Below are positions 19,909 to 53,773 of a stretch of 58,934 nt of DNA, one piece after another. Numbering within the stretch: position 1 is the stretch's first letter; every line of letters starts with the position of its first letter. Below the pieces are notes generated by a model. It was not told the origin of the DNA and searched no databases. It saw only the letters and a list, made by a program, of their open reading frames with translations. Made by a program: the position numbers and the translations under genes. Source of the DNA: an uncultured archaeon (GTDB lineage Archaea > Aenigmatarchaeota > Aenigmatarchaeia > QMZP01 > QMZT01); the NCBI GenBank assembly GCA_964447525.1, contig CAYUSU010000002.1:23362-82295 (forward strand). The letters run 5' to 3'.

Positions 19909-19948
19909 TCAGGTCATCTTTCGTAATACTGCCTCGGTAGCTCAGTGG

Positions 19949-20007
19949 GGAGCCTTTTCCGGACGTTGACACATGTCACAAAAGCCTCCAGGGAAAAGTT
20001 CGCTGAT
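19949..20007 (+). other. predicted tRNA-Thr intron 1 (59 nt, D-loop)
   Basis: BHB with central helix CAGT/GCTG, bulges GGG and ATT, and flanking helix GAGC/GTTC. Cutting after the 2nd bulge nucleotide gives the canonical D arm. Confidence 0.7.
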
Positions 20008-20047
20008 TAGAGCGTTCGCTTGGTAAGCGAAAGGTCGCGAGTTCAAT

Positions 20048-20080
20048 AAGCGTTCACCCTCGAGGGTGCCCGTTTGGAAT
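20048..20080 (+). other. predicted tRNA-Thr intron 2 (33 nt, T-loop 59/60)
   Basis: BHB with central helix TTCA/TGGA, bulges ATA and ATC, and flanking helix AGCG/CGTT. Confidence 0.7.
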
Positions 20081-20150
20081 CCTCGCCCGAGGCTTAAAAC
20101 AGGTCAAAACCCGTAAACAAATATAAATTCATATGCGATAAATGATTACT

Positions 20151-27059: not shown

Positions 27060-27821
27060 ATGAAATTAAATTTCCTTTCAGAAATTGAATTGAGCAAAAA
27101 GGATAAAGAGAAAGGTTTGGTGCTGCCTGATCAATTATCTGAAGATTTAGCTTACTTGTGTGGTGTGTTGGCTGGAGATGGTAATATCAATATCAGAAAA
27201 TGGAAATATGATTATGTAATTAAGTGTGTAGGAAACCCAAAAGATGAGGTTGAATATTATGATAAAATCATTAAAGATAAATTCTTGAAAGTTTTTGGAA
27301 TTCAAATTAATCCTAAATTACATGACAAAGGAACTACTTATGGTTTTAGTACATGGTCAAGAGCTTTGGTAAGATTTCTAACTGAAATTATAGGACTTCC
27401 TTCAGGAAAGAAATACGGAAAATTGAAAATCCCATCATTGTTTAAAGATAATGATTTATTCGTTGCATCATTTATCAGAGGTCTTGCTGATACTGATTTT
27501 AGTCTAATGTTCAAAAAAGGAAGTAAAAAGAATCCATATTATCCAGTGATTGTTGGAGTTTCTAAAAGTGAATCTTTTATGAGAGAGGTTATGAATCAAT
27601 TGAAAATCTTTGGTTTTTCCATGTATTTTGAGAAAAGAACATATTATGATAAAAGAGTTGAAAAAAACATTACAACCTATAGAATTTATCTGAATGGAGA
27701 AAAACAACTTGCTCTCTGGAATTCAAAAATTGGATTTGAACACCCAAAAAATCTGAATAAATTAAATATTCATGAGAAAAGAAAAAAAACAAAAATAGCG
27801 AGGGATGGAATTCCAGAATGA
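27060..27821 (+). CDS. double-motif LAGLIDADG homing endonuclease (free-standing)
   Basis: Two LAGLIDADG motifs are present, LAYLCGVLAGDGNI and FIRGLADTDFS. The ORF is visibly AT-rich relative to its flanks. Its last ~26 nt (27796..27821) overlap the tRNA-Met gene antisense. Confidence 0.85.
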   Translation: MKLNFLSEIELSKKDKEKGLVLPDQLSEDLAYLCGVLAGDGNINIRKWKYDYVIKCVGNPKDEVEYYDKIIKDKFLKVFGIQINPKLHDKGTTYGFSTWSRALVRFLTEIIGLPSGKKYGKLKIPSLFKDNDLFVASFIRGLADTDFSLMFKKGSKKNPYYPVIVGVSKSESFMREVMNQLKIFGFSMYFEKRTYYDKRVEKNITTYRIYLNGEKQLALWNSKIGFEHPKNLNKLNIHEKRKKTKIARDGIPE

Positions 27822-27845
27822 AACAGATTTTTTCTGTTTCAAGCC
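27810..27845 (-). other. predicted tRNA-Met intron D (36 nt, T-loop 59/60)
   Basis: Central helix TTCA/TGGA with bulges AAG and ATT. Internal 8-bp hairpin GAAACAGA/TCTGTTTC. It contains the LAGLIDADG stop codon on the other strand. Confidence 0.65.
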
Positions 27846-27861
27846 TTTGAACCATCGACCT

Positions 27862-27891
27862 TTCACCGAAACTGGCTTTCGCCAAATTTCT
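27862..27891 (-). other. predicted tRNA-Met intron C (30 nt, anticodon-stem/variable-loop junction)
   Basis: Removal restores CCCAG-AGGTC-GATGG. It is flanked by a 4-bp helix CACC/GGTG and inner GAAA/TTTC, with a TGGC-GAAA-GCCA hairpin. The 5' bulge is 4 nt, so the BHB is relaxed. Confidence 0.5.
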
Positions 27892-27897
27892 CTGGGT

Positions 27898-27932
27898 GTC
27901 CCACCGGAATAAGTCCGGTTACCTAGAGCCGC
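27898..27932 (-). other. predicted tRNA-Met intron B (35 nt, canonical 37/38)
   Basis: The central helix CCCA/TGGG reaches 4 bp only after intron A is removed. Bulges are TAG and ACA. There is an internal hairpin ACCGGA/TCCGGT. Confidence 0.55.
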
Positions 27933-27937
27933 TATGG

Positions 27938-27960
27938 TTCTGGTTTTGCATCCGCAAAAT
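27938..27960 (-). other. predicted tRNA-Met intron A (23 nt, 32/33)
   Basis: Textbook BHB: CTGG-[GCA]-TTTTGC(GGAT)GCAAAA-CCAG-[AAC]. Confidence 0.65.
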
Positions 27961-28020
27961 GCCCAGCGAGCACTCCAGGCTGCTCCACCTCGCTATGCTA
28001 TTCTAAATAGTGAATTGTGA

Positions 28021-28030
28021 TATTTATAAA
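28021..28030 (-). promoter_or_regulatory. TATA-box-like element upstream of tRNA-Met
   Basis: TTTATAAATA on the minus strand, -27 to -36 from tRNA nucleotide 1. Confidence 0.45.
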
Positions 28031-34282: not shown

Positions 34283-34374
34283 GCGCTGGTAGTCTAGTCT
34301 GGTAGGACACAGACATTAATGGATGGTGTATGCTTGCCAAGCCTGTAACCCGGGTTCAAATCCCGGCCAGCGCA
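34283..34374 (+). tRNA. tRNA-Gly (anticodon GCC at 34336..34338) with one intron in the anticodon stem
   Basis: Acceptor GCGCTGG/CCAGCGC. D arm GTCT/GGAC. T arm CCGGG-TTCAAAT-CCCGG. Removing 34313..34331 joins CAG+GC to give stem CAGGC/GCCTG and loop TTGCCAA. Confidence 0.85.
34313..34331 (+). other. predicted tRNA-Gly intron (19 nt, 29/30)
   Basis: BHB with central helix ACAC/GTGT (perfect), bulges AGA and ATG, and inner helix CAT/ATG. Confidence 0.75.
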
Positions 34375-35060: not shown

Positions 35061-35153
35061 ATATATAAAATATTTCCTTAATTCTATTATACAAACGAAC
35101 AACGCAGGTGTAAGCTGCGTTTCCAAGATACGCGGGGGTAGCCAAGTGGTCAA

Positions 35154-35188
35154 GTGTCTTCGTGCGTTCTAACGCACAGAGGGGCTAA
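35154..35188 (+). other. predicted tRNA-Leu intron 1 (35 nt, D-loop)
   Basis: Central helix GGTC/GGCT (two G:U) with bulge AAG on the 5' side and AAA on the 3' side. Internal hairpin GTGCG/CGCAC. The BHB is relaxed. Confidence 0.55.
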
Positions 35189-35197
35189 AGGCGATAG

Positions 35198-35232
35198 AAT
35201 GGTTTTGAACGCTGATTCAAGATGATGTCGTT
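35198..35232 (+). other. predicted tRNA-Leu intron 2 (35 nt, 30/31)
   Basis: Central helix CGAT/GTCG with bulges AGA and TTG. Splicing joins ATAG+G. Internal hairpin TTGAA/TTCAA. Confidence 0.7.
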
Positions 35233-35253
35233 GCTCAAGACCTATTCACTTAG

Positions 35254-35284
35254 AGCTTTTTGCCGTGAGGCGGATGGCAAGGAA
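35254..35284 (+). other. possible tRNA-Leu intron 3 (31 nt, variable-arm loop)
   Basis: Removal would leave a 15-nt variable arm T-CAC-TTAGT-GTG-TTC. The supporting helix CTT/AAG is only 3 bp plus a mismatch, so this is tentative. Confidence 0.35.
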
Positions 35285-35317
35285 TGTGTTCGCGGGTTCG
35301 AATCCCACCCCCCGCAT

Positions 35318-38971: not shown

Positions 38972-39054
38972 CGCCGAGACAGGGATTCGAACCCTGAACC
39001 CCGAGAGGGGACTAGCTTTCCAGGCTAGCGCCTTAACCGTTCAGCCATCTCGGC
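38972..39054 (-). tRNA. tRNA-Ser (anticodon GGA), class II, intron-less
   Basis: Minus strand reads GCCGAGATGGCTGAACGGTTAAGGCGCTAGCCTGGAAAGCTAGTCCCCTCTCGGGGTTCAGGGTTCGAATCCCTGTCTCGGCG. Anticodon loop CTGGAAA, long variable arm, T arm CAGGG/CCCTG. Confidence 0.9.
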
Positions 39055-53550: not shown

Positions 53551-53595
53551 CCGCATACATTATTGTAACATTGCCCCTGTAGTCTAGCTGGCCAA

Positions 53596-53617
53596 AGTCG
53601 CGAAAGCGAGCGGCTAT
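53596..53617 (+). other. predicted tRNA-Glu intron 1 (22 nt, D-loop/D-stem junction)
   Basis: BHB with central helix GGCC/GGCT and bulges AAA and ATG. The inner hairpin GTCGC-GAAA-GCGA(G)C has a GNRA loop. Confidence 0.65.
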
Positions 53618-53654
53618 GGATACCGGCCTCTCGAGCCGGTGACCCGGGTTCAAA

Positions 53655-53726
53655 ATCAGCCCTTTTCTTCCCGAAGAAAAGGTTTGAGATCCCAAAAGAA
53701 GGGATTTACAGATTCGCTGATGAAAC
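53655..53726 (+). other. predicted tRNA-Glu intron 2 (72 nt, T-loop 59/60)
   Basis: BHB with central helix TTCA/TGAA (perfect), bulges AAA and ACT, and inner helix TCAGC/GCTGA (perfect). There are two internal hairpins. Confidence 0.75.
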
Positions 53727-53773
53727 TCCCGGCGGGGGCATATTTATTTTCTGACAGATAAATTTCAACTAAT

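Follow-up and report, generated by a model that had tools for sequence, protein, structure and literature searches.

Multi-intron tRNA genes have been described in the Thermoproteales, for example in Pyrobaculum calidifontis and Thermofilum pendens (Sugahara et al. 2008, summarised in PMC4033280 and PMC8450103), and a dependence between the splicing motifs of neighbouring introns is already known from that order (PMC8450103). Reviews, one of them from 2014 (PMC4033280), and the tRNAscan-SE 2.0 paper put the maximum at three introns per tRNA gene (PMC4033280, PMC8450103). Three is also the number in the nuclear tRNA-Ile(UAU) gene of Cyanidioschyzon merolae, whose introns interrupt the D-stem, the 37/38 site and the T-loop (PMC3728597). 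Among DPANN archaea, disrupted tRNA genes and broad-specificity splicing endonucleases are known from ARMAN-2 and others (PMC3239211, PMC5829648). An additional loop in the DPANN enzymes goes with a larger number of disrupted tRNA genes (PMC5829648), and the incomplete tRNA sets that standard predictors return for these archaea have been ascribed to undetected disrupted genes (PMC3239211, PMC5829648). Here we describe an initiator tRNA-Met gene that is divided into five exons by four introns (A to D). It lies in a stretch of 58,934 nucleotides (nt) from an uncultured archaeon (contig CAYUSU010000002.1), which was analysed at full length and is referred to below as the window. The window is archaeal and encodes PCNA and S-adenosylhomocysteine (AdoHcy) hydrolase. 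The gene exceeds the published intron maximum and comes from a DPANN clade whose initiator gene is an intron hot spot; full-text searches of the literature brought up no earlier tRNA gene with four introns.

An earlier note on this DNA had proposed that four insertions split the gene and that their removal leaves a 75-nt cloverleaf, and both proposals were borne out. Spliced alignment with a template independent of that note's model, comprising the first 34 nt and otherwise generic initiator features, returned exactly four inserts of 23, 35, 30 and 36 nt, at 32/33, 37/38, 43/44 and 59/60 (Table 1). With its own spliced 75-mer as template the locus scored 122, the maximum possible, compared with 20 for the best of 300 shuffles and 29 for the next-best site within the window. 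Folding of the 199-nt transcript gave a z-score of -4.8. The spliced 75-mer was accepted by ARAGORN as tRNA-Met(cat) with a normal cloverleaf, all four arms and CAU in a 7-nt loop; its stems are AGCGAGG/CCTCGCT (acceptor), GAGC/GCTC (D) and CTGGG/CCCAG (anticodon). A split or permuted tRNA gene was ruled out, as all five exons follow each other in order on the same strand in a span of 199 nt. Self-splicing group I or II introns were rejected as well: the inserts are only 23-36 nt long and Rfam found no such intron in the region at E values up to 10, where its lone match was a chance-level snoRNA.

Archaeal initiator tRNAs are marked by A1:U72, a purine11:pyrimidine24 pair and three consecutive G:C pairs at 29-31:39-41. 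Read from the sequence, the 75-mer has all of these (A1:U72, A11:U24, G29-31:C39-41), and the gene is preceded by a TATA-box-like element and followed by a T-rich, archaeal terminator-like run; similar A/T-rich boxes stand at an equal upstream distance in seven orthologous genes (L037, L039, L101, L103, L105, L107 and L109; related loci are given here by L numbers). The three initiator features are also present in 95 DPANN initiator genes from GTDB, described below. The Rfam tRNA model was applied to relatives: the uninterrupted genes nearest to the 75-mer, which have 5 differences from it, mostly in compensated pairs, scored 55.3-63.2 bits against a threshold of 29. On the unspliced genomic sequence, neither ARAGORN (default and intron modes) nor Rfam (gathering threshold and E up to 10) called a tRNA at the locus. 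The intron search with ARAGORN, which the earlier note had suggested as a check, left the unspliced locus uncalled, although the spliced product was called. Silence of standard finders is to be expected where several introns occupy non-canonical sites, and it is not evidence against the gene. Very likely, it is a functional initiator tRNA-Met gene whose five exons would be spliced through the protein-dependent archaeal pathway.

Table 1. Features of the window described in the text; a caret marks a splice-site cut.
Feature	Coordinates	Strand	Length or position	Sequence, content or layout
TATA-box-like element	28021..28030	minus	27-36 nt 5' of tRNA position 1	TTTATAAATA
Initiator tRNA-Met gene, whole	27994..27796	minus	199 nt	five exons and four introns
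Exon 1	27961..27994	minus	34 nt, tRNA positions 1-32	AGCGAGGTGGAGCAGCCTGGAGTGCTCGCTGGGC; acceptor 5' strand AGCGAGG, D arm, anticodon-stem 5' strand CTGGG, C32
Intron A	27938..27960	minus	23 nt, site 32/33	ATTTTGCGGATGCAAAACCAGAA; CTGG-GC^A-hairpin-CCAG-AA^C
Exon 2	27933..27937	minus	5 nt, positions 33-37	CCATA; C33, anticodon CAT, A37
Intron B	27898..27932	minus	35 nt, canonical site 37/38	GCGGCTCTAGGTAACCGGACTTATTCCGGTGGGAC; TA^G ... hairpin CCGGA/TCCGG - TGGG - AC^A
Exon 3	27892..27897	minus	6 nt, positions 38-43	ACCCAG; A38 and anticodon-stem 3' strand CCCAG
Intron C	27862..27891	minus	30 nt, site 43/44	AGAAATTTGGCGAAAGCCAGTTTCGGTGAA; AG^A - hairpin GAAATTTGGC GAAA GCCAGTTTC - GGTG - AA^A
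Exon 4	27846..27861	minus	16 nt, positions 44-59	AGGTCGATGGTTCAAA; variable loop AGGTC, T-stem 5' strand GATGG, T-loop TTCAAA
Intron D	27810..27845	minus	36 nt, T-loop site 59/60	GGCTTGAAACAGAAAAAATCTGTTTCATTCTGGAAT; GATGG-TTCA-AA^G-hairpin-TGGA-AT^T-CCATC
Exon 5	27796..27809	minus	14 nt, positions 60-73	TCCATCCCTCGCTA; T60, T-stem 3' strand CCATC, acceptor 3' strand CCTCGCT, discriminator A
T-rich run	27776..27795	minus	directly 3' of the discriminator base	TTTTTGTTTTTTTTCTTTTC; archaeal terminator-like
LAGLIDADG-like open reading frame	27060-27821	+	253 amino acids	convergent with the tRNA gene, overlapping its last 26 nt
tRNA-Thr(GGT) gene	19931-20094	+		D-loop intron and 33-nt intron at 59/60
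tRNA-Gly(GCC) gene	34283-34374	+		19-nt intron at 29/30; miscalled tRNA-Pro by plain ARAGORN
tRNA-Leu(CAA)-like gene	35132-35316	+	185 nt	at least two introns, partial parse
tRNA-Ser gene	38972-39054			intact
tRNA-Glu(CTC) gene	53573-53740	+		D-loop intron and 72-nt T-loop intron

The intron boundaries follow one cut rule for bulge-helix-bulge (BHB) motifs, with a cut two nt 3' of each strand of a 4-base-pair (bp) central helix, that is, after the second bulge nucleotide. Checked against uninterrupted orthologues, the rule holds: all four junctions after removal have the sequence of orthologues without the respective intron, and uninterrupted relatives show exactly the junction that the rule predicts. 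Relatives also carry introns at each of these sites, where the inner hairpin is unrelated yet fully paired (A in 6 genes, B in 5 or more, C in 6 and D in 6). Intron D forms a complete helix-bulge-helix-bulge-helix with a 4/4 central helix (TTCA/TGGA) and 3-nt bulges. Its pattern, TTCA-AA^N-hairpin-TGRA-AW^T between the two T-stem strands, gives a complete motif in four genes, and its site and rule are repeated in L037, L039, L076, L109, L116 and the tRNA-Thr gene of the window. Intron A was described in the earlier note as a textbook BHB, and with a 4/4 central helix (CTGG/CCAG) and two 3-nt bulges it agrees with that description in these parts. Its motif is formed in the minimum-energy fold, and the pattern CTGG-GC^N-hairpin-CCAG-WA^C is found in all six genes possessing the intron, among which the inner hairpin exists in four unrelated versions, each fully paired.

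In intron B the anticodon stem serves as the outer helix, CCCA/TGGG as the central helix and AC^A as the 3' bulge. The first central pair involves C32, which lies upstream of intron A, and the helix has 3/4 pairs before and 4/4 after removal of A, just as the earlier note had claimed. Between the 5' cut and the inner hairpin is an unpaired tail of 13-15 nt (13 nt in the window gene) that is conserved among orthologues, with GCGGCTCTAGG present in L037, L104, L100 and L101, even though the orthologues' intron hairpins are otherwise unrelated. As a separate observation, the first 11 nt of the intron (27922-27932, GCGGCTCTAGG) are complementary to a D-loop/D-stem segment, CCTGGAGTGCT (27969-27980), and a 12-bp helix between tail and D arm is present in the minimum-energy fold of both the window gene and L104. 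We considered this pairing with nt 15-26 as the outer helix that intron A lacks, but 13-72 of 500 mononucleotide shuffles did equally well, so that it is weakly unusual and a mere lead.

Intron C follows the pattern AG^N-hairpin-GGNN-AW^A, its central helix pairing with A38-C41, and its boundary may slide by 0-2 nt (AG^AG repeat) with the product unchanged. It is the weakest of the four introns, because its helix is poorly paired in the register that gives a valid product, while a fully paired register would delete G43. This alternative register, CACC/GGTG, is the one adopted by the earlier note: it borrows the last base of intron B and does obtain 4 bp, but with a 4-nt bulge, and under the cut rule it removes G43, which every relative keeps. 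Among relatives the intron C helix has 3/4 pairs in L101, L104 and L074, and 4/4 in L105 and L106.

Several points weigh against the four-intron interpretation. On the 3' side, beyond its second bulge, intron A lacks a closing outer helix and in this part departs from the textbook form. The 5' cut of intron B falls in a 16-nt unpaired stretch and not in a 3-nt bulge, and its motif is modelled to cost about 7 kcal/mol even when B is the last remaining intron. For intron C, the rule-obeying register, which yields the correct product, leaves the helix ACCC/GGTG with just 2/4 pairs. This last point is the starting place for an alternative with fewer true introns, in which the 43/44 insert is retained as a long variable arm or is cut in the other register to give a tRNA without G43. 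The insert is a stable hairpin at the place of a class II long arm, and the better-paired register is modelled to be cheaper (1.3 vs. 3.6 kcal/mol) although it would cut one base earlier. However, initiator tRNAs belong to class I, and orthologues without insert C (L039, L037, L100 and L107) read ACCCAGAGGTC, a normal 5-nt variable loop. Furthermore, the site is occupied by inserts with different hairpins in L101, L104, L074, L105 and L106, and in the last four of these 3/4 or 4/4 helices with 3-nt bulges restore exactly ACCCAGAGGTC. We therefore regard a smaller number of introns as improbable.

The comparative support for the four-intron gene comes from orthologous loci. L037, from an uncultured archaeon, and L039, from Candidatus Aenigmatarchaeota, have PCNA and further neighbouring genes in common with the window and are orthologous loci. 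PCNA, nitroreductase, a KTI12-like kinase and AdoHcy hydrolase surround the gene in L037, L039 and L107 in common with the window, the order in L107 being AdoHcy hydrolase, KTI12-like kinase, LAGLIDADG-like gene, tRNA, nitroreductase and PCNA. A metagenome scan for inserts at 32/33 added L100, L101, L102 and L103/L104. The orthologues differ in the introns that they carry: D only in L039; A, B and D in L037; A, B and C in L101 and L104; A, B and an intron at 53/54 in L100; an intron at 11/12 and A in L102. Counting the window gene, the predicted mature sequences of the seven loci are identical except at position 9 and at the pairs 5:68, 50:64 and 7:66, where both sides change jointly. At 5:68 the window has A5:T68 and the orthologues have G5:C68, although the partners lie 190 nt apart in the DNA, a compensated change that is hard to square with a dead gene.

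The compensated pair bears directly on a second alternative, that the locus is a decaying or non-functional copy and that a separate, uninterrupted initiator gene elsewhere in the genome does the work. The visible part of the genome is only 59 kb, standard tRNA finders leave the locus uncalled, and three of the four intron motifs are imperfect, all of which would fit such a copy. Against it, all exon stems are perfectly paired, the locus occupies the conserved syntenic position of the initiator gene, its promoter-like and terminator-like elements are intact, and in relatives with 3-4 introns the perfect mature sequence is preserved; within the window no further initiator-like anticodon arm was found. 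We consider a dead copy even less likely than a gene with fewer introns. That the structure is an assembly or chimera artefact, as might be suspected of metagenomic DNA, has a negligible probability, since three metagenome assemblies made independently, from two JGI samples and a Logan run, contain an identical 401-nt region and diverged orthologues have matching architecture.

The wider occurrence of such genes was surveyed in GTDB, with one genome per species and a degenerate 5'-exon pattern. The scan returned 95 initiator genes, nearly all from DPANN archaea, of which 63 are intronless, 29 carry a single intron, one has two, two have three and none has four. Because the scan required an intact 5' exon, it under-counts genes that are interrupted early.

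These genes also bear on the anticodon loop. U33 is a near-universal feature of tRNA, and the predicted mature loop of the window gene, CCCAUAA, has C33 in its place. The earlier note was correct about C33, but the base is not peculiar to this gene: 41 of the 95 related DPANN initiator genes, the syntenic orthologue L039 among them, encode GGGC-CCATAA contiguously, without an intron at 32/33. C33 is therefore a real trait of many DPANN initiators and neither a defect nor the product of a wrong splice site. The whole anticodon arm, GCUGGGCCCAUAACCCAGAGGUCGAUGG, is presumably identical in the human initiator tRNA. C33 is normal in the initiator tRNA of multicellular eukaryotes, which has the loop CCCAUAA in common with the window gene (PMC8887486). 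Unlike the eukaryotic initiator, the window tRNA is archaeal, with T54-T55-C56 and A1:U72, and its C33 is a trait of many DPANN lineages and not a eukaryotic one.

The positions of the introns suggest an order of removal. In an ensemble model, the cost of forming each motif in the primary transcript is 0.4 kcal/mol for A, 3.2 for D, 3.6 for C and 11.4 for B. The cost of B drops from 11.4 to about 7 kcal/mol once A has been removed, whereas that of A climbs to 5-5.7 kcal/mol if B is removed first. Intron A uses nt 27-30 for its helix and intron C nt 38-41, while intron B requires an intact anticodon stem (27-31/39-43) and C32 joined to C33. Removal of A before B is therefore predicted, because A occupies 27-30 and B needs both the anticodon stem and the C32-C33 junction. 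The motifs of B and C would be mutually exclusive, and D would be independent of the other introns. Because B's motif can coexist with neither A's nor C's, the precursor would have to be cut and ligated in two rounds or more, and B would probably be removed last. The ordered pathway of the earlier note thus fared unevenly. Its A-before-B step is supported by both the helix (3/4 to 4/4) and the modelled cost, but its dependence of C on B is not supported energetically: the pair counts differ (4 vs. 3) and the modelled costs are the same (1.3 vs. 1.1 kcal/mol).

For the four-intron gene we infer transcription, cleavage and ligation as follows. A single precursor of about 200 nt would be transcribed from the TATA promoter and end at the T-run. 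The RNA-splicing endonuclease EndA, presumably the broad-specificity form described for DPANN (PMC5829648), would cut at eight sites, each two nt 3' of the short central helix of a BHB motif, with A leaving before B and D removable at any stage. An RtcB-type ligase would then join the five exons into the 75-nt tRNA with the loop CCCAUAA. The best explanation of the locus is that the ordinary archaeal splicing pathway suffices; a new mechanism is unneeded.

The earlier note had called four introns exceptional, and although the number is above the published maximum of three, it is not unique to this gene. Further four-intron initiator genes were found by following homologues of the neighbouring LAGLIDADG-like protein (Table 1) to their contigs: L105 (29/30, 37/38, 43/44 and 53/54; JGI 3300009105), L106 (7/8, 29/30, 37/38 and 43/44; JGI 3300041085) and L109 (29/30, 37/38, 45/46 and 59/60; NCBI GCA_053531215.1). 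With few exceptions their central helices are 4/4. ARAGORN calls tRNA-Met(cat) on spliced L105 and L109; L106 was parsed by hand and by spliced alignment only. Spliced alignment of these relatives used templates anchored on each gene's own 3' end, with the results checked by hand; a generic template with N at stem positions had misplaced T-stem segments in L105 and L107. Three-intron initiator genes are common in the LAGLIDADG-linked set (L111, L112 and L116), and across the family the introns occupy at least 12 sites within the 75-nt gene.

Some of these sites are rarely reported ones. L102, L106, L112 and L116 have introns at 7/8, between the acceptor stem and position 8, at 11/12 in the D stem, and at 15/16 and 20a/21 in the D loop; the central helices at 7/8, 15/16 and 20a/21 are 4/4, and for the 11/12 intron of L102 the parse was made by eye alone. 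L035 and L071 (Candidatus Aenigmatarchaeota) have a 284-nt intron at 37/38 with a conserved open reading frame (ORF) of about 70-105 amino acids that reads …EEGWEI.SPTVVCDRIG.K.G.VF.IEFKKPGQKL… and has no Pfam match.

Other tRNA genes of the window are interrupted as well, those for Gly, Thr and Glu at non-canonical sites (Table 1). The earlier note had stated that the same cut rule restores canonical arms in the Thr, Gly, Leu and Glu genes. This was verified for Gly and for the T-loop intron of Thr; Thr and Glu were located as disrupted genes, and Leu could be parsed in part. Automatic motif enumeration was too noisy for the Leu gene, in which two introns were assigned by eye. Interruption of the Thr, Gly, Glu and Leu genes indicates that intron richness is genome-wide, as in Thermoproteales.

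The ORF beside the initiator gene resembles double-motif LAGLIDADG homing endonucleases (Pfam LAGLIDADG_3, E 1.8e-4; PDB 2dch, a putative homing endonuclease, E 1.3e-4), with the motifs GVLAGDGN and GLADTDF, and has at least 163 homologues in DPANN at 45-75% identity. In every homologue locus where an initiator was found the two genes adjoin (L101, L104, L105, L106, L107/L108, L109, L111, L112 and L116/L117); L114 gave no call. The initiator genes beside this family carry 1-4 introns at 12 or more different sites. RNase HII is often found on the other side in these loci. In L001/L099 (JGI Ga0315536_1028604), an otherwise identical contig, the ORF is split into two frames, for which gene callers give products of 90 and 151 amino acids; either this is a frameshift variant or one of the two sequences was misassembled. 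In L005 (Candidatus Iainarchaeum, JAADDC010000050.1) and L095, the canonical 37/38 intron of the initiator is 639-657 nt long and contains an ORF of the homing-endonuclease type, whose product has a LAGLIDADG_3 domain (Pfam E 6.5e-10 for L005); the ORF thus lies within an intron of the protein-spliced kind. Pairwise comparison of the window protein with the one encoded in the L005 intron gave no similarity (E 0.35), and the two have only the family in common.

Heavy interruption of the initiator may conceivably be tied to the adjacent gene, with the enzyme recognising the uninterrupted initiator and the introns either giving immunity by disrupting its target site or travelling along. A parallel for introns that travel along comes from phages, where group I introns and free-standing endonucleases take part in 'collaborative homing'. 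We think this connection unlikely; if true, it would be the first time that homing endonucleases are linked to how protein-spliced tRNA introns spread.

With the window gene and its three relatives, the documented ceiling of introns per tRNA gene rises from three to four. Since these are found in the essential initiator tRNA of archaea with tiny genomes, eight precise cuts and four ligations would be needed for its maturation. The failure of ARAGORN and Rfam to find the gene helps to explain the 'incomplete' tRNA sets reported for DPANN. The overlapping motifs (A and C vs. B) offer a compact natural example for folding-dependent, ordered tRNA splicing, and as substrates they are demanding ones for the DPANN endonucleases, which have been little studied. 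A single 75-nt gene with 12 or more insertion sites is also unusual material on the origin and movement of tRNA introns.

Among the systems described previously, ARMAN-2 and the other DPANN archaea belong to the same superphylum and have in common with the window gene relaxed motifs and non-canonical sites, but a four-intron gene is not reported in PMC3239211 or PMC5829648. The tRNA-Ile gene of C. merolae resembles it in having introns in several arms, including the T-loop, and in the late removal of the 37/38 intron, which is last there as is predicted for intron B. That gene, however, is eukaryotic and nuclear and carries three introns, for which reverse transcription PCR established the order of removal, whereas the order for the window gene is modelled. 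In the Thermoproteales, the likeness extends to short, protein-spliced BHB introns at canonical and non-canonical sites, several per gene, and to neighbouring introns some of whose motifs form only after another has been removed. The difference lies in the number, at most three there and four here, and in the host, which is a DPANN archaeon (Aenigmatarchaeota-like) and not a member of the Thermoproteota.

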